Below, piece after piece: positions 1 to 8,724 of a stretch of DNA of 64,000 nt. The notes beneath the pieces are model-generated. The model was not told the origin of the DNA. It saw only the letters and a program-made list of their open reading frames with translations, and did no database searches. The stretch is from an uncultured Bryobacteraceae bacterium. GTDB taxonomy: Bacteria > Acidobacteriota > Terriglobia > Bryobacterales > Bryobacteraceae. Position 1 is the first letter of the stretch; each line of letters opens with the position of its first letter. Position numbers and translations under genes: made by a program. The DNA lies in the NCBI GenBank assembly GCA_964245395.1, contig CAXTMN010000001.1, forward strand, positions 56,552 through 120,551, given 5' to 3'.

Positions 1-76
1 GGAGATGAAGTGATTCGTACCTGATTTTGGCGCACTCCGGGTATGATGCGTGCCCAGGACCCGGTGCGGGAGCGAA

Positions 77-772
77 TCAGGCGGCGGTTTGGATGCGATT
101 CGTCTCTGGGAGAAGCTCGATTGGAGGCGCAACCGGCTGTTCTGAGCTGTCGCCTTTGCCCTGGCGAGTGCTGGCGGCTGCCTGGTAGTGACTAATGCGC
201 GCTTTTGTGAGCTGAAGACGAACTTCGTGGAGTTCCTCCCTGCGGATTTCGGCGGCTTGCTGACGCTTTTCGGCCGCTTCACGACGGACTTCTGCGGCGG
301 TAACCCGTTTTTGCGATTCGAACCCAATTTGCCCTGACACTTCGGCGGTGCTCTTCAGGCGGTCGGCCTGGATCTGCCGATATTGATCCAGAGTTTTGTC
401 GAACGATCGCTGGTGAGTGGTTTGGTAGCGCAGGAAAAGAGCAAGCTGCTTCGGGTCGTAGGTTTCGGGCTTGTCGGGATGGAGGCACAAGTCCTGAAGA
501 AGAATGGAACGCTGAACGAGCCAGTAGTGTTTGGTGATGCTTTCGATGAGTAGACGTTCGGTGACGGTGACAGGCTTAAGGTCGCCAATGAAACGTTCTC
601 GCAAGGAGTTATATTCTTCCTGCCGTTCCCAGCTCATCACTTTGAAGGTGTTGCCGGTTAGGCCAAAGCGGTAGTTGTTCTGGCTGGAGGCGGCTTTGCC
701 AGTGCCTGTTTGAGGGCCGGTTGAATTTTCGGCGTTGAGGCGATTTGCGGCGATCTGAGCGGCGGTGGACAT
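77..772 (-). CDS. hypothetical protein (charged helical C-terminal half)
   Basis: 231-aa ORF. The N-terminus reads MSTAAQIAANRLNAENSTGP and the C-terminal half is rich in R/E/K/Q (AEVRREAAEKRQQAAEIRREEL). No catalytic motif recognised. Confidence 0.5.
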   Translation of the reverse strand: MSTAAQIAANRLNAENSTGPQTGTGKAASSQNNYRFGLTGNTFKVMSWERQEEYNSLRERFIGDLKPVTVTERLLIESITKHYWLVQRSILLQDLCLHPDKPETYDPKQLALFLRYQTTHQRSFDKTLDQYRQIQADRLKSTAEVSGQIGFESQKRVTAAEVRREAAEKRQQAAEIRREELHEVRLQLTKARISHYQAAASTRQGKGDSSEQPVAPPIELLPETNRIQTAA

Positions 773-919
773 GAAGAAAAGCTCCTGAGACGCGAAAAAG
801 CCGGACAGGAGGTGATCCTCGTCCGGCTTGATGCGAAAAGTGGGAGGCTCGGCGGCCGTCCTGATATCAGGATACAGGACCGTGGCAAGCGTTTCCGTGT
901 AAGTTGTTGAAAGAAGGGG

Positions 920-954
920 AAAAACTACCAGTGACTGCTCGCGGTCACTGGTAG
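920..954 (-). terminator. rho-independent terminator downstream of the 1090..1995 ORF
   Basis: Read on the minus strand: perfect 11-bp stem ctaccagtgac/gtcactggtag, 8-nt loop, followed directly by TTTTT. It lies about 135 nt after the stop of the 301-aa ORF. Confidence 0.6.
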
Positions 955-1089
955 CGCTTCGGCTGAGTGCCTCAGGAAGGCGCTTCAGATTCTTTCGGGT
1001 AGCTAATTCGGCGTTCCGGTACCGTCCTTCACTGCATGATTAAGCCATGGCCCGAAACGGTGCAGATGTTGTGTATGACAAGGCCGGTC

Positions 1090-1995
1090 CTATTGTTCCA
1101 ATAGCATTTGCGGAGGACGGTCTGAGTGAAGGACTTCTAAGACTTTCAAGACGTCCTGCTGTACGCTTACTACCTCGTTATCGAAGCCATATCGAACCGT
1201 ACTCCTAACGAGCGCTTTCAGGGAGTCACCAGGGAATAACACAATCCCTCCGCTTCGGAAGGCATTTAGCCATTCCAGATCACCGACCCTTGCGGCTACG
1301 ATTCGGCCGTCATACACAAATTCCCACATTGACTCACCTAAGAAATCGGGCTTTTTGACACGAAGTATCATAGGCCCTTCGCTGGCCATCTGCTCCCTAA
1401 CGAGCAAATCATCTATCTGTTTCGGAGATACGGAGAATGAGAGGTTTATGTCAATAACTTCGAGCTGTGTAAGATATTTAGCTGCATCGTTTTTCGTAAG
1501 CACCGATGGCGCATCTCCGAGCGTTTTTAACGCACGAGCGATCTCCAAGGTTGGTACTGGGCGATACGTAGGTATTCGAAGCACATCAGTTTCTTCAGCA
1601 TTCTGAAGCAAGTTCGATTGAAGACCGGCTAGTTCCGACGTGGACTGGATGGTGGTTCGTTTGTCTATGAAGTTAATCAGAGTTTTCTTTCCCTGAACCA
1701 AATATGCGCCTATAAGTTTCTTGTAGTCGCCGCTCTTAAGCGCTTCACTATCGATAGACTCTAGGGTGTTCTTTAGCCAAACCAATATGGACCCGGCCTC
1801 AATGTCCTCCAAAAGAAGAATGGGCTGGATACGGGGATTGATAGAAGAAAGAAGTACTCCGTCTATGAATCCGAACGAATCTATGTATGAAGTCATTGCG
1901 CGGAATACACGAGAGGGGGCGGCGCTGTTTCGCTCAAAGTCTATTTCGATACCAAACTCGTCGAGTCCTCGTTGACCAACAACAAGTGCCGCCAT
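1090..1995 (-). CDS. hypothetical protein, partner of the RusA-like ORF
   Basis: 301-aa uninterrupted ORF, 38 bp downstream of and co-oriented with 2034..2666. No recognisable motif. DNA looks more AT-rich than the window average (by eye, not computed). Confidence 0.6.
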   Translation of the reverse strand: MAALVVGQRGLDEFGIEIDFERNSAAPSRVFRAMTSYIDSFGFIDGVLLSSINPRIQPILLLEDIEAGSILVWLKNTLESIDSEALKSGDYKKLIGAYLVQGKKTLINFIDKRTTIQSTSELAGLQSNLLQNAEETDVLRIPTYRPVPTLEIARALKTLGDAPSVLTKNDAAKYLTQLEVIDINLSFSVSPKQIDDLLVREQMASEGPMILRVKKPDFLGESMWEFVYDGRIVAARVGDLEWLNAFRSGGIVLFPGDSLKALVRSTVRYGFDNEVVSVQQDVLKVLEVLHSDRPPQMLLEQ

Positions 1996-2033
1996 TTATG
2001 TTCTAGACCCGGTTGAATGTTATCAGAGCAATC

Positions 2034-2666
2034 TCAGATTAGGCGCCCACCAACAAAGATGGCTGAGGGGTCTACCACGCTTACTCGAATCACAAGATCC
2101 ACATCGTGAATGCCTTCGTTAGACTCCTGCGGAGTTAATAGGCGATCCGTCGTGACAGAAATTTGGGTTACTAATGCATCATCCTCAAGCAGGCAATGGA
2201 ACGGGTTTTCATCTGGTTCAATTTGGAACCCGCCAAGCTCGGGGAATGTATCCGGCATTCTTAGGCCATCCATGAGCACTTTGATGCGGTTGTCTAGGTC
2301 ACCGCCAGATCTAATCAGATTCCCTGGACCATCCCTTCGCAGGAACAAGATATCAAGCGAACAAGTTAAGCCCCCTTCCTTGGTGACTAGCGGCACGAAC
2401 CTACCACCGAACCTCTGATGATCGTCAGCTATGTGCTCGATCCAGGGCTTGGTGTCAGGCACCCCGGCCGGTACTCGGTGGATCTGGCCGAGAAGTTTGT
2501 AATAGTGCAACTCACTTTGTCGCTTCAAATCAGGGTGTTGTTGCCATAGCTCTCGCAATTGCTTGTGAAAATGCTTTCGTAGTCGATGCTTGTCCTTTAC
2601 CCGGCTGCCTCCTTTCCCGCTCGCCGCAGCTGGCAAAGGGCCCTTATAGATCAGCCTGAAATCCAC
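2034..2666 (-). CDS. RusA-fold (Holliday-junction resolvase-like) nuclease-related protein, atypically long
   Basis: 210-aa ORF with a GTG start. The motif GGDLDNRIKVLMDGL, then about 25 aa, then LLEDDALVTQISV matches the RusA acidic-cluster pattern D-x-D-N-x2-K-x3-D-x-L ... D-D-x2-V. It has an N-terminal extension and an internal insertion relative to the ~120-aa RusA. Confidence 0.5.
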   Translation of the reverse strand: MDFRLIYKGPLPAAASGKGGSRVKDKHRLRKHFHKQLRELWQQHPDLKRQSELHYYKLLGQIHRVPAGVPDTKPWIEHIADDHQRFGGRFVPLVTKEGGLTCSLDILFLRRDGPGNLIRSGGDLDNRIKVLMDGLRMPDTFPELGGFQIEPDENPFHCLLEDDALVTQISVTTDRLLTPQESNEGIHDVDLVIRVSVVDPSAIFVGGRLI

Positions 2667-2726
2667 GAAGCTACCAGTTTCAGGTTCATAGTCGTAATAT
2701 GCGAAGTTGTGACGTGTGTAAGCGCA

Positions 2727-3167
2727 TTAGACTACTGATTTAGTGTTTGTGTTGTCACGCCGCGGCGTCGAACCGGTCCTACTTCTTGTGAGCGTATCTG
2801 AAAGCCGGTGTAGGATCTTCGACGTTTGGACGCCCTTGGTCAAAAGAAAACATCCCTTTGCAGCGAGATTATTCGCTTTCATAAGGTGCCGGACGATCTC
2901 TGCCTGCGTAGCACCTGGAACGATCACAAACCGCTTTTCATAGTCGTGGATCAGCAGCATTAACACGCCAACTAGCTCTTCTTGTTCAGGCGTGAGGTGG
3001 TCCTGGTTGACTAGTGTCTTTAGCAGCTCGATAAAACGCTCATTGTCCTCGTCGTCCCTGATGATGTGTGGCCGTGTCTGCATTAGTAGTGAGCCGTATG
3101 TCTCATTAATTGCGCTGTTCAGAAAACTCCCTGCTTCTCCTGCTCCCTTTTTTGACTTTTCTTCCAC
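2727..3167 (-). CDS. higA: HigA-type antitoxin (HTH)
   Basis: It lies downstream of the HigB-like ORF, which is the toxin-first order typical of higBA. The IIRDDEDNERFIELLKTL...VGVLMLLIHDYEKRF segment is typical of HigA partners of the HigB_toxin family. The true start may be the internal ATG at 3083, because the 3167 start overlaps higB by 49 nt. Confidence 0.65.
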   Translation of the reverse strand: MEEKSKKGAGEAGSFLNSAINETYGSLLMQTRPHIIRDDEDNERFIELLKTLVNQDHLTPEQEELVGVLMLLIHDYEKRFVIVPGATQAEIVRHLMKANNLAAKGCFLLTKGVQTSKILHRLSDTLTRSRTGSTPRRDNTNTKSVV

Positions 3168-3538
3168 TCATTCCGGTCGTACTCAGCATGCTTCATGAGC
3201 CGTTTGAAGAAAATCATCTTGTGTTGATAGTTGATCTGTACAACCAACCGGAACTGATTGCCGCAAATATTGAAGACCGTGTATATTCGACTCCCGATAG
3301 TGATGCCATCGGCATCTGGATAGATCTTTCGAATATCCTCCAGGCTGCCCCATTTCCGTTTTCGATGCAACTCTTTCTCATGAATCAACTTCAGTTGCTG
3401 CGGCCCGATGCTTGTTCTCTGAGCATGCCGCCACAGAGCCGAGATAGGCGCCGAAAGATCCTGATGCGGCATCCTGAGAATCAACGCCGTTGCACAAAGA
3501 ACCTGTTTGCAGTATTCGAGTTCCCGTGGATGTATCAC
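3119..3538 (-). CDS. higB: HigB-family toxin (RelE-fold mRNA interferase), N-terminus atypically long
   Basis: The C-terminal core VFNICGNQFRLVVQINYQHKMIFFKRLMKHAEYD matches the HigB_toxin signature (GN-x-YRL...THAEYD). The ORF is 139 aa versus about 100 aa typical. Its N-terminal part contains the 57-nt patch shared with 14193..14249. Confidence 0.7.
   Translation of the reverse strand: MIHPRELEYCKQVLCATALILRMPHQDLSAPISALWRHAQRTSIGPQQLKLIHEKELHRKRKWGSLEDIRKIYPDADGITIGSRIYTVFNICGNQFRLVVQINYQHKMIFFKRLMKHAEYDRNEWKKSQKREQEKQGVF
3434..3490. repeat. 57-nt patch, 56/57 identical to 14193..14249
   Basis: Manual alignment: cagagccgagataggc[g/a]ccgaaagatcctgatgcggcatcctgagaatcaacgccgt occurs at both sites in the same orientation. 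Confidence 0.9.
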
Positions 3539-3715
3539 GCTCTACCCGTAGATGTGAGCCTCGGCGCGGATAGATCATGTGTGACGGCGCAGCGTGAAGT
3601 AGGCGCATCTGGTTCGGAGGTATAGACGTGCTCGCATTTAACTAGCGAGAAATCCCCTTCGCACAAATGTAGGTTCGTGGATGCGAAGGGCTGTTATAGA
3701 CAGCCATCGCAAGAG

Positions 3716-4068
3716 TCACTGACGCCGATGCACCGGCTGAATCACCTAAGAAAAAGTGTTCTTTTCGATCGCAAAGCGGTCGAGCGAGATACGAAAAGGC
3801 TGCGAGTGGCTTGCGCATTCGCTTCACACACTCTCCCAAATTGAACGCCCCTCTGGAGCATTGGCAGCAAGACACTTTCGTGGCCCGGTGGCCCGACCGC
3901 TCCATGGATGCGGACGCCTACATCACCTTCTCGCTCAACCCCGACGGAACAATCGAAAGCGCCAAAATGAAGCCGGTCTCTCCGCTCACCGACTTCAGTT
4001 TCGACTTCCAGCATATAGCCCTAAAACCGGTGCCTAAAGACGCTGCCGCGTGGTAAGTGGCGGGATTT
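3716..4068 (+). pseudogene. internally deleted copy of the serine-hydrolase gene 5686..7350 (5' ~77 nt fused to 3' ~270 nt)
   Basis: 3716..3792 matches 5673..5750 (start region, MHRLNHLRK...). 3795..4068 matches 7089..7362 with about 4 mismatches (LRIRFTHSPKLNAPLEHWQQDTF...KPVPKDAA). The two parts are out of frame with each other. Confidence 0.85.
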
Positions 4069-4197
4069 CGCAGCCGGGTGATTGGTGAAATTCCGCCGAT
4101 TATTAGGAAACCCTTGGCGACCAAGCAGGAATAACCATACCTGGCTCTCAAAGGTCCCGTCGATCACCTGGATTTAGTAAGCGATACTCGGACTGTA

Positions 4198-4434
4198 GTG
4201 GCGCCAAGCGACACATCGTCGAAAGTGAACGAAGTCTACTTCCAACGACTTGGGGCAATGACTCCCGCCGAACGAGCACGCCTTGGTGCTGCGCTTTGGG
4301 AGGCTGGGCACGCTCTTCAATGGGCTGCGGCCCGCCGCAGGCATCCGGAGGCTGATGAGGCCGAGCTTGCATTTCACGTGGCAGTCACCCGTTTTGGAGC
4401 AGAACTGGCGCGAGCGGCTTATCGAAAGGCGTGA
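4198..4434 (+). CDS. small helical protein, putative partner/antitoxin of the downstream nucleotidyltransferase
   Basis: 78-aa ORF. Its stop overlaps the next start by 4 nt (ATGA), suggesting translational coupling. Confidence 0.5.
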   Translation: MAPSDTSSKVNEVYFQRLGAMTPAERARLGAALWEAGHALQWAAARRRHPEADEAELAFHVAVTRFGAELARAAYRKA

Positions 4435-5012
4435 TGGCGCCCGCCGACGCCTTCGACATCCTACGCGTCGCGCTGGAGCAAGCCAGGATTCGGTACGCAA
4501 TCGGAGGCTCCTGGGCGAGCACCGCTTTCGGTGAGCCTCGTTTTACAAATGATGTAGACATTCTGGCGGACGTGACGCCGGAAAATTTAGAGGTGTTTCT
4601 TCGCCATTTGCCCGCGACATTCTACGCCGACGGGGAGGAGGCACTCAACGCAATTGGCCGGGGCAGACCTTTCAATGTGATTCATATGCCCACGGTACTG
4701 AAGTTCGATCTGTTTCCTTCGAGTGCGTTCCCGATAGGCAGTGAAGAACTGAACCGCGCTGTTTTGTTGGAAGATACTGGGCTGTCGAAAGGGCCAGCGT
4801 GGTTCGTCACACCAGAGGACATTTTGCTCGCTAAATTGTATTGGTTCAAATTAGGCGGTGAGGTATCCGAGGTGCAATGGCGCGACATAACGGGCATTGT
4901 TCGCGCATGCTCTGCGACGCTCGATCGTGCATATCTCGAGCGTGCCGCCTCGCAGTTGGAGGTTTGCGCTATGCTGCACCGATCGCTTGGCCAATCTGAA
5001 CTGGACGGATAA
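4431..5012 (+). CDS. minimal nucleotidyltransferase-fold protein (MNT/DUF6036-like)
   Basis: YAIGGSWASTAFGEPRFTNDVDILAD fits the pol-beta NTase motif G-[GS]-x9-13-D-x-D. Length is 193 aa. Confidence 0.6.
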   Translation: MMAPADAFDILRVALEQARIRYAIGGSWASTAFGEPRFTNDVDILADVTPENLEVFLRHLPATFYADGEEALNAIGRGRPFNVIHMPTVLKFDLFPSSAFPIGSEELNRAVLLEDTGLSKGPAWFVTPEDILLAKLYWFKLGGEVSEVQWRDITGIVRACSATLDRAYLERAASQLEVCAMLHRSLGQSELDG

Positions 5013-5112
5013 ACTCGTGAGCGACGGCAGATGCAGTTTAATTGCGAGCGTCGTTCCGTATCTTCGATTACCAGATGTATCCTGGCAGAACTTGATCGGA
5101 GTCTTCTCTAAT

Positions 5113-5627
5113 GTGCAGACGGTTCTTCAATGCTTTTTGGTGGCCCTCTTAGCCGCCAGGTTGGACGCACAGTCGATATTGGAGAAGCTTAAACAGTCGG
5201 ATCATCCCCAAGGCTAGGAAGCGCTAGCGCACAGGGATCAGGTAAGCCTTGAAGGCGACGTGCGCTGGATCCAAGATCAACTTGGATTACACCGCCCTAC
5301 TCAGCTACTGCTCCTCGACGAGAAACATTGCATACTTTCCCTGGATTTCCCTATTCGTTTGCTGTTTCAGATGGTCGACAGGCACTGATCGTGGTTCCGG
5401 TGGATATCGGAAGCCTGGCATCTGGGGTGGAAGGATCCAAGGAATTGAGAGGGGATTTGATGCTGTTCCATGAGGCCGGACATATCTATGCCGATGCGGC
5501 CAAGTTAGAAAACATTCATGATGCGCTCACGGATTTGTATGCTGATCTTTTCGCTACATCGTACATTCGAGCAAAAGCGGCCGGATCTCTCCTCCGTTCT
5601 CAGGATAGGTCCGCCTGGAAAAGGTAA
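5113..5627 (+). pseudogene. decayed secreted HExxH (zinc-metallopeptidase-like) protein gene
   Basis: GTG start followed by a signal-like VQTVLQCFLVALLAARLDAQS. There is an in-frame TAG at 5215..5217 and a frame change near 5330. The downstream part carries LFHEAGHIY. Confidence 0.4.
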
Positions 5628-5685
5628 TCTGCCGCGGTTCTCTCGCCTGGTGGCGGGTCCCCTTCGCAATCGTCACTGACGCCAG

Positions 5686-7350
5686 ATGCACCGGCTGAAT
5701 CACCTAAGAAAAACTATTCTTTTCGATCGCAAAGCGGTCGAGCGAGATACTGTGCTGATAACTGCCAATCCATCCGGGCTACGGAGTACAAAATATGCGC
5801 CTCTCATCCAACTCTGCCTTTTTGCTCTAGCGGTCTTCCCCATATGCGCCCAAGAGTATCTCGACAAAGTCGTCGAACAAGCCCGCAAAGAATTCAACGT
5901 GCCCGGCATCGCGGTGGCCATAGTGAAGGACGGCAAAGTGGTTATAGAAAAGGGTTATGGCGTGCGCCGTCTCGGCAACCCTGCACCAATCACGACCCAT
6001 ACCATCTTCGGCATCGCTTCTAACACCAAGGTTTTCACCTCAGCCGCTCTCGCCATGCTTGTCGACGAAGGTAAACTCGCTTGGGACGACCGCGTCGTTG
6101 ACCGCCTTCCCGGCTTTCAAATGTCAGATGCCTACGTCACTCGTGAAATGCGCATTCGTGACCTGCTCTGTCATCGCAGCGGCCTCCCGTTAGGCGGCGG
6201 CGATCTTATGTTTTGGCCCGGCACTGACCTCACGTCTGATCAAGTAAATTACCGGCTTCGCTTCGTGCCGCTCGAGACAAGCTTCCGCAGCGCCTATGCT
6301 TATGACAACATTCTTTACAACGTCGCCGGCGCCGTCTTGAAGCAAGTGTCTGGCGAGTCATGGTCCGACTTCATCAAGGATCGCTTTTTCGCGCCGCTCA
6401 ACATGCACGACAGCAAGACCAGCATCCGCGACATTGATGATTCAACCGACGTTGTCGCGCCGCACGCCATGGTTGATGGCAAATTGCAAGCTGTTGCTCA
6501 TGGCTCGCTCGACAACAACGCACCCGCTGGCGCCATTGTGTCCTCTGTAGATGATATGAGCCGCTGGATGATGGTGCTGCTCAACAAGGGCGACCTGGGC
6601 AATGGCAAGCGTCTCTTAAGTGAAAAGCAAGCCCGCGTTCTATGGACACCGCTCACCATTCTCCCAGTAGGTGAGTCGCCCGCCGAACTCGTAGAAGTGC
6701 ATCCCTATTTCGCGGACTACGCCATGGGCGAAGTCCTGCGTGACTATCGCGGACATTTGCTCGTTTACCACACCGGCGGCCTGCAAGGCATGGTCAGTAT
6801 TGTGGCCATGTTGCCGGAGTTGCACGCCGGTGTCGTGGTTCTCACCAACCAGGAATCCGAAGCCGCCTTCCAATCTATCGCCGATACCGTGTTCGATCAT
6901 TACCTCCAAGCGCCGCCCAAAGACTGGGTAACCGCCATGGGTAAGGTGGTCAAGCGCCACATGGACGAAGCCGAGAAGACAGTGGCAGATGCTGGGTCTA
7001 AACGCGACGCGTCATCGAAGCCCTCAATTCCTCTCGATTCTTATGCCGGACGTTACCGCGATCCCTGGTATGGCGACGTCGTGATCGAAAAAGGTGCGAG
7101 TGGCTTGCGCATTCGCTTCACACACTCTCCTAAATTGAACGCCCCTCTGGAGCATTGGCAGCAAGACACTTTCGTGGCCCGGTGGCCCGACCGCTCCATG
7201 GATGCGGACGCCTACATCACCTTCTCGCTCAACCCCGACGGAACAATCGAAAGCGCCAAAATGAAGCCGGTCTCTCCGCTCACCGACTTCAGTTTCGACT
7301 TCCAGCATCTAGCCCTAAAACCGGTGCCTAAAGACGCTGCCCCGTGGTAA
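5686..7350 (+). CDS. beta-lactamase-family serine hydrolase with C-terminal DUF3471-like domain
   Basis: S-x-x-K motif in FGIASNTKVFTSAAL. N-terminal hydrophobic signal LCLFALAVFPICAQE. 554 aa. The true start is uncertain. Confidence 0.8.
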   Translation: MHRLNHLRKTILFDRKAVERDTVLITANPSGLRSTKYAPLIQLCLFALAVFPICAQEYLDKVVEQARKEFNVPGIAVAIVKDGKVVIEKGYGVRRLGNPAPITTHTIFGIASNTKVFTSAALAMLVDEGKLAWDDRVVDRLPGFQMSDAYVTREMRIRDLLCHRSGLPLGGGDLMFWPGTDLTSDQVNYRLRFVPLETSFRSAYAYDNILYNVAGAVLKQVSGESWSDFIKDRFFAPLNMHDSKTSIRDIDDSTDVVAPHAMVDGKLQAVAHGSLDNNAPAGAIVSSVDDMSRWMMVLLNKGDLGNGKRLLSEKQARVLWTPLTILPVGESPAELVEVHPYFADYAMGEVLRDYRGHLLVYHTGGLQGMVSIVAMLPELHAGVVVLTNQESEAAFQSIADTVFDHYLQAPPKDWVTAMGKVVKRHMDEAEKTVADAGSKRDASSKPSIPLDSYAGRYRDPWYGDVVIEKGASGLRIRFTHSPKLNAPLEHWQQDTFVARWPDRSMDADAYITFSLNPDGTIESAKMKPVSPLTDFSFDFQHLALKPVPKDAAPW

Positions 7351-7362
7351 GCGGCGGGATTT
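7089..7362. repeat. parent copy of the ~270-nt direct repeat shared with 3795..4068
   Basis: Manual alignment shows about 4 mismatches. Confidence 0.85.
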
Positions 7363-7383
7363 TGACCAATGACTACCCAACAG

Positions 7384-8724
7384 CTAATCGATCTGCAGTC
7401 CTATTCTTTCGAGAATGCCTGTGAAACGGTGGTCTTCGCGTAAATTTACAAAGTGGGGATCATACCTCAGGTAGATGACAGCACCATCGCCCTCCTTGCA
7501 GGCACGATCCAGGCACTCGAAGGCGGCATCGCGCTCATTTAAATAGGAGTGTATTGCAGCGAGCGCATAAGACCATCGAAAGCCCGGCACTTCAGGTTTC
7601 TCGAGAAGTTCTTCAAGAAGTGTACGCGCTTCCTCATGCCTTCCTAGCAAAGCGTTCACCATCGCTAGAGTCGCGGCGCCGCGAGTGCTGGTCCCGGACA
7701 GCGCAATAGCCTTGGCAGCCTCGTTTAGAGCTTCGGCGCTCCGATTCAGACGTGCATAGATGATGGCGAGCAACTGATGAGCCGCAAGGAAATTCGGCTC
7801 CAGGTATTCGAATTTTAATAACTGGGCGAAGGCCTCTTCGTATCGGCCGGCATGATACAGCACGCCAGCAACGTGATAGGCGACGGGACACGAGAGCGGA
7901 TCGATTTCCGCAGCCAATAGAGCATGCTTAAGTGCGTCCTCGAAGCGACCTGAGATCAGCAAGAAATGACTGTATGCAAAGTGGCCTGGCATCGAGTTTG
8001 GAGCCAGTTCGATGGACGTCTTGAATGAATTGTCGGCTCCCTTGCGGTCACGGTCAAGTGTAAGTCTTAGCATTCCTAAGACCGCGTGAGCCGGAGCGCA
8101 CCAGGGATCGAGACTCAGCGCCGTCGTGGCAGCAGCCTTGGCGCGAGGGAACGCATCCGTGCCGGGCAAGAAGCCGAAGCCGGCATACAAATAAATGTAT
8201 GCCAGCACGGCATGGGCCTCAGGGTAGGCCGGGTCTGCGGCGACTGCTTGCCTTGCATAGCTCAGAGCATTCGCGACTGCGCTTGGCACCCATTGGCTGG
8301 CGGCGTGCCAAGCCCGTCGCACGAGATCCGCCGCTTCGATATTTTCATTCAGGCTGGACGCGGGCTGTGAGACTTTAGCGACTCGATGATGTACACGACC
8401 GACAAACCGGTAACCGTGTTTCGACACCGTCTCTATGTATTGAACGTTCGAGTGCTGTGCCAGAACACGGCGCAAATCAGATACAACTCGCGCCAGGGTA
8501 ACGTCTTCCACAAACGTGTCCGGCCAGAGTGCGCGATGCATCAGCTCTTTCGAAAGCAGGCTTTCGGCATGGTCGATAAGCAGAATCAGAGCGTCCAGAA
8601 TTTTTGGAGGCACCGCGACGCTTGCGCCCGCAAAAGAGAGCTTCCGGTTGCGCGCGTCGAGCGCAAACCGGTCGAACTCATAGACGTTCGGCAAAGCGTC
8701 TGTGCTGTGTTCTTCTACCCTCAT
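7384..8724 (-). CDS. winged-helix (OmpR/CadC-type) DNA-binding protein with TPR repeats
   Basis: The N-terminus YEFDRFALDARNRKLSF...ETVSKHGYRFV is a trans_reg_C-type domain. The C-terminal ~300 aa are TPR-like (AYPEAHAVLAYIY, repeated A-x-x-x-F/Y-x-x-A-L). Confidence 0.75.
   Translation of the reverse strand: MRVEEHSTDALPNVYEFDRFALDARNRKLSFAGASVAVPPKILDALILLIDHAESLLSKELMHRALWPDTFVEDVTLARVVSDLRRVLAQHSNVQYIETVSKHGYRFVGRVHHRVAKVSQPASSLNENIEAADLVRRAWHAASQWVPSAVANALSYARQAVAADPAYPEAHAVLAYIYLYAGFGFLPGTDAFPRAKAAATTALSLDPWCAPAHAVLGMLRLTLDRDRKGADNSFKTSIELAPNSMPGHFAYSHFLLISGRFEDALKHALLAAEIDPLSCPVAYHVAGVLYHAGRYEEAFAQLLKFEYLEPNFLAAHQLLAIIYARLNRSAEALNEAAKAIALSGTSTRGAATLAMVNALLGRHEEARTLLEELLEKPEVPGFRWSYALAAIHSYLNERDAAFECLDRACKEGDGAVIYLRYDPHFVNLREDHRFTGILERIGLQID

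Follow-up and report, generated by a model that had tools for sequence, protein, structure and literature searches.

An apparent two-gene defence cassette in an uncultured Bryobacteraceae bacterium is probably two separate accessory genes, one derived from an IS1595-type insertion sequence

Within a 64,000-nucleotide (nt) stretch of the genome of an uncultured Bryobacteraceae bacterium (contig CAXTMN010000001.1 of assembly GCA_964245395.1; the whole stretch is hereafter the window), two co-oriented open reading frames (ORFs) at positions 1090–2666, which we call geneA and geneB (Table 1), lie next to a higBA-type toxin–antitoxin (TA) pair. A first-pass annotation, made from the sequence alone, had read the two as one cassette in which a RusA-like nuclease effector would act with a sensor or regulator partner in defence or abortive infection. 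A survey of the relatives of each gene leads us to a different reading: these are probably two separate accessory genes that are adjacent here only, geneA being a stranded, IS1595-derived gene for a RusA-fold protein and geneB an independent member of the LAPAL/PDC-S42 family.

Conservation of the two genes as neighbours had been named as a test of the proposed cassette. At 90 loci with relatives of geneA, 84 from genomes and 6 from viral contigs, neither tblastn nor a profile hidden Markov model (HMM) of the geneB family found a relative of geneB (0/90). Reciprocally, 86 loci with relatives of geneB (80 metagenome contigs, 4 look-ups and 2 phages; 437 kb) contained no geneA-family protein, either in a tblastn search that used 29 diverse queries or in one with a profile HMM (0/86). 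These two results refute the cassette as a conserved pair, and the adjacency of geneA and geneB is particular to this genome.

About half of the geneA relatives lie in genuine IS1595-family insertion sequences (IS). Clustering of the neighbouring ORFs at the 90 loci returned one recurrent partner, of ~316 amino acids (aa), which is present at 44 of them and is an IS1595-family transposase (Pfam DDE_Tnp_IS1595 and Zn_ribbon_IS1595); the same clustering gave no other conserved partner of geneA. The transposase is at most 2.6 kb from geneA in 31 of the 61 loci with full flanks. Relative to geneA it is convergent and downstream at 34 loci and in tandem upstream at 8, and, as a control, it was found at 3 of the 86 geneB loci.

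In the convergent layout, inverted ends of ~25 bp starting GGTAATTAT, with the consensus GG(T/C)(A/G)A(T/C)TAT, enclose geneA and the transposase in elements of 1.8–3.5 kb. Target duplications of ~8 bp, exact or near-exact, were identified at loci L002 (ttgtagaa), L007, L011 (agaactgc), L016, L025 (ctacttag), L032 (ctacttaa), L040 (caaactat), L045 (ctcagaag), L070 and L077; two of these read as 9 bp and two have one mismatch. The L040 element, from Acidicapsa dinghuensis 4GSKX, measures 1.86 kb (5898–7756). In the tandem layout, paired ends of the form GGGCAnTAATATACTTGAC surround the transposase, geneA and variable extra DNA, as in a 2.5-kb element with a perfect 17-bp repeat (L078), in elements of 2.9 kb each at L048 and L074, and in a 4.25-kb element at L006/L008. 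In their ends, 8-bp duplications, lengths (1.8–4.25 kb) and transposase domains (DDE_Tnp_IS1595 with a zinc ribbon), the elements that carry geneA relatives are alike to the ISNwi1 type of ISfinder, which has ends ggnnatTAT, an 8-bp duplication and members of 1.75–4.75 kb with passenger genes. A literature search that included neither the primary IS1595 paper nor ISfinder found nothing linking a RusA-like gene to the IS1595 family. Members of the IS1595 family usually have 8-bp target duplications and a single transposase gene whose product bears an N-terminal zinc finger, and most of them hold the transposase alone (PMC8101967). The elements with geneA relatives conform to these traits in duplication length, in their one transposase gene and in its zinc finger.

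Two sets of copies document mobility. The 4.25-kb element is present in two metagenome-assembled genomes (MAGs) at 92% identity with different flanks. A single Terriglobia MAG carries an IS with its RusA-like gene twice (L009, 5909–7869, and L029, 5909–6571); the two copies are 100% identical and part company precisely at the left repeat's first base. The flank upstream of L029 and the one downstream of L009 share 95% identity, suggesting neighbouring copies or a repeated target.

The smallest IS copies (1.8 kb) contain geneA and the transposase and nothing more. The two genes have diverged to a similar extent (median identities 39% for geneA and 37% for the transposase), and their identities are correlated (Mantel r = 0.31, p <= 0.0005, 35 loci). 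Other cargo within the elements showed no Pfam family and no conservation by tblastx. Since this other content is variable and without family, geneA is the only gene that consistently accompanies the transposase in this lineage.

At L095 (1931–1953), L011 (5896–5920) and L016 (2673–2700), the start codon of the RusA-like gene falls within the left inverted repeat, and the right repeat of IS-borne relatives includes a perfect TTGACA directed at the transposase gene; given these positions, expression of the RusA-like gene may need transcription from the flank. Other relatives sit in different surroundings. In an Acidobacteria MAG (L001/L005, 8001–9859), a relative without a transposase is followed by a pentapeptide–TIR gene near an integrase-bearing element, and on the Nitrosococcus halophilus plasmid pNHAL01 (L098, 4001–7301) a relative is part of a run with genes for a restriction endonuclease, a ‘nucleotide-binding protein’ and an HNH endonuclease.

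From its sequence, the window copy of geneA reads as a stranded, truncated and still intact descendant of an IS1595-type element. Its closest relative (79% identity) lies within a 3.25-kb element of this type, in which the left repeat and geneA are followed by 1.5 kb of small ORFs, then by the transposase and the right repeat. In this element and in near relatives, the frame extends 5′ of a conserved Met/Val to a start codon in the left repeat, and the 5′ extension of IS-borne relatives holds a conserved DLPRT...F.Y(F/Y)EPE stretch; L095, whose ATG is inside the left inverted repeat, reads MNIFDAPVWECNHQHSDLPRTRTFKYFEPEPGGC-MDFRL. DNA alignment and in-frame translations show that the window retains only the proximal extension, in frame (...NFAYYDYEPETGSF-V-DFRL; vestige in Table 1); neither the left IS end nor the start codon further 5′ is present.

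Window geneA lacks the transposase, inverted repeats and duplication typical of IS1595 elements. The window gave no tblastn match to the IS1595 transposase cluster; near geneA we found no IS end, whether up to 2 mismatches were allowed or a degenerate pattern was used; and the islet has no flanking inverted repeat and no target duplication. The first-pass annotation had noted that no phage structural or recombination genes flank the pair. Absence of a mobile context is true of the window, in that it contains neither transposase nor IS end; for geneA it is misleading, the family being IS-borne. The same annotation had considered that homologues might be embedded in prophage recombination modules, which were not seen; geneA relatives reside in IS elements instead.

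The core of window geneA comprises 210 codons without frameshift or stop and keeps every invariant family residue, and the conserved internal Met/Val position at which it now starts is the annotated start in many homologues. For the closest pairs, dN is 0.13–0.32 with saturated synonymous sites, so only dN is reported and not dN/dS. The intact core, together with these dN values at saturated synonymous sites, indicates that selection has constrained geneA through most of its history.

The first-pass annotation had called the geneA product RusA-like on the basis of an acidic residue pattern, and structural modelling supports that call. RusA is a homodimer of ~120 aa that cleaves Holliday junctions, with catalytic residues D70, D72 and D91 plus K76. 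By sequence alone, geneA had no match in Pfam, NCBIfam, PADLOC, PHROGs or the sequences of the PDB; in particular, it did not match Pfam RusA (PF05866) at E <= 1, the gathering score being 22.8 bits. At 90% identity its homologues fall into 1141 clusters, none of them named and the majority from Acidobacteriota. A profile search of a representative library recovered 2925 representatives of 50% clusters at E <= 1e-3, of which the best 150 included no bridge from the geneA family to RusA, and a profile search of PDB sequences with the family returned nothing relevant. The family is thus a large one without any Pfam or NCBIfam model.

The AF2 model of the geneA protein, built from 56 sequences, has a pLDDT of 87.4 and a pTM of 0.84. 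Foldseek recovered a RusA-like fold: the best PDB match is RusA 2h8c (probability 0.89–0.96, E 0.02–0.085), chain C of which gives a probability of 0.96 and a root-mean-square deviation of 3.7 Å across 96 columns. Against the viral models of BFVD, 7 matches reached E <= 1e-3, the top named ones being RusA/Rus resolvases with probabilities of up to 1.00, and nearly all named matches in the top 50 are RusA/Rus Holliday-junction resolvases. TM-scores are modest (0.25–0.59) because geneA carries insertions. The secondary-structure elements of the model, β1 (2–10), α1 (20–43), β2 (101–110), α2 (123–135), β3 (166–175) and β4 (188–198), follow the order β1-α1-β2-α2-β3-β4 of RusA (PDB 1Q8R and 2H8C) in our own reading of the topology. 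GeneA differs in length (210 aa against 120 aa). The additional residues had been attributed in part to an N-terminal extension; the RusA core begins at residue 2, and the extra length consists of two internal insertions (~aa 45–100 and 137–155) and a C-terminal helix.

The catalytic pattern is conserved across the family. Among 116 diverse members, D123 and D125 are invariant and N126, K129, D133 and D163 are conserved in >= 90%, so that the motif D-x-D-N-x2-K-x3-D-x-L noted in the first pass, plus the following DD, is a family-wide core. Sub-threshold matches to Pfam RusA occurred in 54 of these 116 members (8 for the runner-up family), all through one common 17-residue motif at profile positions 77–94 (best E 0.0098, ~13 bits). 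With a RusA query sequence verified against 1Q8R, hhalign matched GGD123-L-D125-N-R-I-K129-VLMD133-GL to RusA RRD70-L-D72-N-L-Q-K76-AAFD80-AL, thereby lining up RusA D70, D72 and K76 with the geneA motif; the RusA alignment used here is shallow (69–100% identity) and only the motif aligned, so we do not take this match by itself as proof of homology. D162-D163 of geneA corresponds to RusA D90/D91 by inspection only.

Taken together, the model and the motif support geneA as a diverged RusA-fold protein with the RusA catalytic constellation, and its product is predicted to be a metal-dependent, structure-specific, dimeric nuclease for branched DNA. Its setting is unlike that of RusA in that no lambdoid prophage recombination module surrounds geneA and its relatives sit in DDE insertion sequences. 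Positions 1–7350 of the window, where the flanks were examined, hold no lambdoid phage or prophage replication–recombination module, and only 6 viral-contig matches to geneA were found.

The product of geneB, for which the first-pass annotation could place no motif, can be assigned by profile matches to the LAPAL/PDC-S42 family as an independent, stand-alone member. It passes the cut-off of NCBIfam NF053583 (LAPAL_fam) with 76.4 bits against 60, over aa 53–288 of 301. All 53 aligned members of the geneB family match LAPAL_fam (best 3.7e-32), and all 53 also match the PADLOC model PDC-S42 (best 1.2e-11). The window protein by itself scores weakly against PDC-S42, with E 0.016 over just the C-terminal third. 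Its length of 301 aa compares with profile lengths of 292 and 302. A PADLOC search, which the first pass had suggested as a check that the pair is not a named system, left geneA unmatched and linked the geneB family to a catalogued candidate. PDC entries are computational candidates, untested as systems (PMC11514479). PDC-S42 is a single-gene defence candidate and geneB likewise stands alone; our literature search found no description of PDC-S42.

In the AF2 model of geneB (pLDDT 84.9), the N-terminal half is helical and the C-terminal domain (~171–289) is β-rich. The best structural neighbours of this domain are OB folds; these matches are weak, none reaching E <= 1e-3. NCBIfam names the family ‘LAPAL motif-containing putative phage structural protein’, and window geneB has no literal LAPAL string. 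Relatives of geneB occur in two phage genomes, at the accessory end both times. The record of Mesorhizobium phage vB_MseS-P1 marks two proteins near the geneB homologue gp62, one lysozyme and the tail fiber protein, as ‘virion protein’ and leaves gp62 itself unmarked, which makes the ‘structural protein’ name doubtful. In a Vibrio phage, the homologue adjoins a transposase, and a Phd/RelE pair lies two genes downstream.

In bacteria, the nearest geneB relative (72% identity) is stand-alone, beside a pentapeptide protein gene and IS21, and others stand alone in ordinary or mobile contexts. An IS1-family transposase (PF03400) neighbours geneB at 15 of 85 loci (among them L104, L105, L121, L150, L152, L159, L161 and L163), usually 4–50 bp away and on either side; integrases do so at 6 loci and methylase–Mrr fusions at 5. 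One unit of ~2.2 kb, consisting of the transposase and geneB, is ~70% identical among three contigs. GeneB, too, is possible IS cargo; we found no terminal inverted repeats around the units of IS1-type transposase and geneB. Overall, geneB is a mobile gene that stands alone, and its product probably binds nucleic acid.

A role for geneA can be proposed from its predicted fold and its association with the transposase. In its native IS, the protein would probably act as a dimeric branched-DNA nuclease on transposition intermediates. It might resolve cointegrates or the Holliday junctions that join one IS copy to another; alternatively, it might cleave the strand-transfer intermediate at its flap or non-transferred strand, a role comparable to that of TnsA in Tn7. 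As a solo copy, geneA could still give the host an enzyme for cutting junctions or flaps, much as a defective prophage gives E. coli its RusA. Window geneA probably came from an IS1595-type element, of which the transposase, the inverted repeats at both ends and the beginning of the 5′ extension are gone. The wider proposal, in which the RusA-fold family is an integral second nuclease of one IS1595 lineage that processes branched transposition intermediates and the window gene is a stranded survivor, is one that we put forward tentatively, as possible rather than likely.

In Tn7, the DDE transposase is joined by TnsA, a second nuclease that is not of the DDE type. As a functional analogy only, geneA resembles TnsA in being a small separate nuclease gene kept beside a DDE transposase over long evolutionary distances. 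The two differ in fold (restriction-endonuclease in TnsA, RusA in geneA), and most IS1595 elements are without geneA, whose co-operation with the transposase we infer. To our knowledge, recruitment of a RusA-type resolvase by a DDE element would be a transposition strategy not described for insertion sequences.

Several observations weigh against these readings. Because most elements of the IS1595 family contain only the transposase, geneA is not required for transposition across the family, and no transposase lies near roughly half of the geneA relatives. Several solo copies adjoin defence-type genes, with CAP12/Pycsar-type TIR, AbiU2 HEPN and restriction–modification genes among the downstream neighbours scanned, and an IS-independent benefit of geneA in repair, defence or addiction is possible. 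Sequence similarity to RusA is limited to the ~17-residue motif and the Pfam RusA threshold is never reached by the geneA family; the hhalign probability is only 16.7% and the PDB Foldseek E value no better than 0.02. Within the window, the 38-bp spacing, common strand and single terminator downstream fit an operon in this genome.

That operon-like arrangement, the low-GC islet beside higBA and the match of the geneB family to a PADLOC defence-candidate model would all suit a dedicated defence or abortive-infection module in which a RusA-like nuclease effector is paired with a sensor or regulator. We nevertheless regard such a module as highly improbable: the pair is absent from all 90 geneA and all 86 geneB loci, PDC-S42 is a single-gene candidate, geneA has no PADLOC match, and the closest relatives of both genes occur without the other, that of geneB with no geneA alongside and that of geneA in an IS with no geneB. 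A looser association with defence is conceivable, in which geneA is the constant part of a modular conflict system whose downstream effectors (TIR, HEPN, LAPAL) can be exchanged, and the IS merely a ferry. Solo geneA at L001 is followed at 125 bp by the co-oriented pentapeptide–TIR gene; on the Nitrosococcus plasmid, the ‘nucleotide-binding protein’ gene follows at 99 bp with restriction and HNH genes around; TIR, AbiU2 and restriction–modification families are among the downstream neighbours; and variable cargo lies behind geneA in IS copies. Set against this, the downstream neighbours are mostly unrelated (for example, OMP decarboxylase, signal peptidase II, MacB/FtsX and other transposases), each defence family appears once or twice in 44 neighbours, the cargo within the IS is unconserved and without detectable family, and the minimal 1.8-kb copies dispense with any effector, holding geneA and the transposase only. 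We consider this system improbable.

Two further explanations concern geneA by itself. E. coli RusA, from the defective prophage DLP12, replaces RuvC when expressed, and by that precedent geneA could be a domesticated host repair nuclease, a back-up Holliday-junction resolvase unrelated to transposition or to geneB. Its intact frame, full set of catalytic residues and purifying selection would agree with domestication, as would the retention of many solo copies across phyla; yet the window copy is 5′-truncated, starts at GTG, has no clear ribosome-binding site or promoter and lies in a low-GC acquired islet, and no orthologous conserved chromosomal position was found among geneA relatives. We judge domestication unlikely, if somewhat less so than the modular conflict system. 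The opposite possibility, that window geneA is a non-functional relic in decay and geneB alone is active, draws on the weak start signals and on what the gene has lost, namely its transposase, the ends of the IS and the start codon further 5′. Its difficulty is that 210 codons have stayed free of frameshifts and stops, that all invariant family residues are present and that the conserved Met/Val serves as the start in many annotated homologues, and to us decay is about as improbable as the conflict system. We therefore retain, as the probable explanation, two separate accessory genes brought together here.

For the window, the result is mostly corrective: an apparent new defence cassette becomes two unrelated pieces of mobile-element cargo, one of them an already catalogued candidate, and as a feature of the window this is an ordinary patch of mobile-element cargo. 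The by-product is worth more. It is an unmodelled RusA-fold family of ~3,000 clusters at 50% identity, tied physically and evolutionarily to a lineage of DDE insertion sequences in Acidobacteriota, Alphaproteobacteria and other phyla. Should the nuclease take part in transposition, a simple IS would be dealing with branched intermediates by novel means; should it have no such role, it would be a widespread, unexplained and conserved IS passenger. Annotation pipelines could name the genes of this family, and screens of defence islands should treat them as IS-linked and not as defence effectors.

The arrangement of the two ORFs, including their strand and separation, is as first described (Table 1). 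Because the consensus terminator scan has no entry in the spacer between them, transcriptional read-through from geneA to geneB is possible. A terminator had also been reported after the genes, and direct folding against 200 shuffles bears it out: the hairpin at ~924–955, which the consensus scan did not call, has a dG of -27 kcal/mol and z = -4.4, with 0 of 200 shuffles equally stable. The low GC content that had been judged by eye is equally real, positions 1090–2666 having a GC fraction of 0.491 against 0.552 +/- 0.021 for the window, in the lowest 0.6% among windows of the same size. The earlier picture of a TA-rich, low-GC islet is a fair one, and higBA, geneA and geneB are best explained as a low-GC patch that was horizontally acquired. 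By accident of position, geneA and geneB may be co-transcribed with or after higBA, up to the hairpin.

Table 1. Features around geneA and geneB, in window positions
Feature	Position	Strand	Details
Intrinsic-terminator-like hairpin	919..955	(-)	12-bp stem, 8-nt loop; U5 tract at 919–923; ~135 nt 3′ of the geneB stop
geneB	1090..1995	(-)	301 aa, ATG start, intact ORF
geneA–geneB spacer	1996..2033	(-)	38 bp
geneA	2034..2666	(-)	210 aa, GTG start, intact ORF
5′-extension vestige	2667..2726	(-)	In frame with geneA as CAYTRHNFAYYDYEPETGSF; ends at the higA TAA
Putative higA antitoxin ORF	2727..3167	(-)	PADLOC PD-Lambda-2_B 3.9e-5, match begins at residue 32
higB toxin gene, upstream neighbour	3119..3538	(-)	Pfam HigB_toxin 5.1e-19; PADLOC PD-Lambda-2_A 2.6e-16

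The higBA pair, which is no part of the finding, was identified correctly as to its toxin, HigB having a clear Pfam match. The antitoxin is the weaker half of that assignment: the ORF after HigB is of antitoxin size, its PADLOC match is the only one, and it has no helix-turn-helix match in Pfam. The true start of higA is likely the ATG at 3077, giving 116 aa. As had been stated, the start codon of geneA lies 60 bp past the stop of the ORF called higA (2727). That stop, a TAA, is in frame with geneA, 21 codons 5′ of its GTG, with no start codon between (2664–2729, minus strand); the shared frame is probably chance (1 in 3). No linkage to higBA was seen among the relatives of geneA and geneB examined, the sole TA exception being one phage with Phd/RelE 0.6 kb downstream of the geneB homologue and one gene between.

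Beyond the terminator, a 231-aa ORF (77–772, minus strand) has no match in Pfam, NCBIfam, PADLOC or PHROGs. On the plus strand, 4198–5012 holds a second TA-like pair, in which a 78-aa ORF matches the Pfam Rv0078B-related antitoxin family exactly at the cut-off (27.1 bits) and shares a 4-bp overlap with a 193-aa ORF lacking a family match. Around this pair, 3677–4056 is a decayed part-copy of sequence at 5661–7350, which contains a 554-aa beta-lactamase-family gene (5686–7350). The 39 bp upstream of that gene and its first ~22 codons are repeated at 3704–3760, and its last ~80 codons are repeated, near-identically, at 3811–4056, which looks like a tandem duplication combined with an internal deletion, the TA-like pair being placed between the copies.

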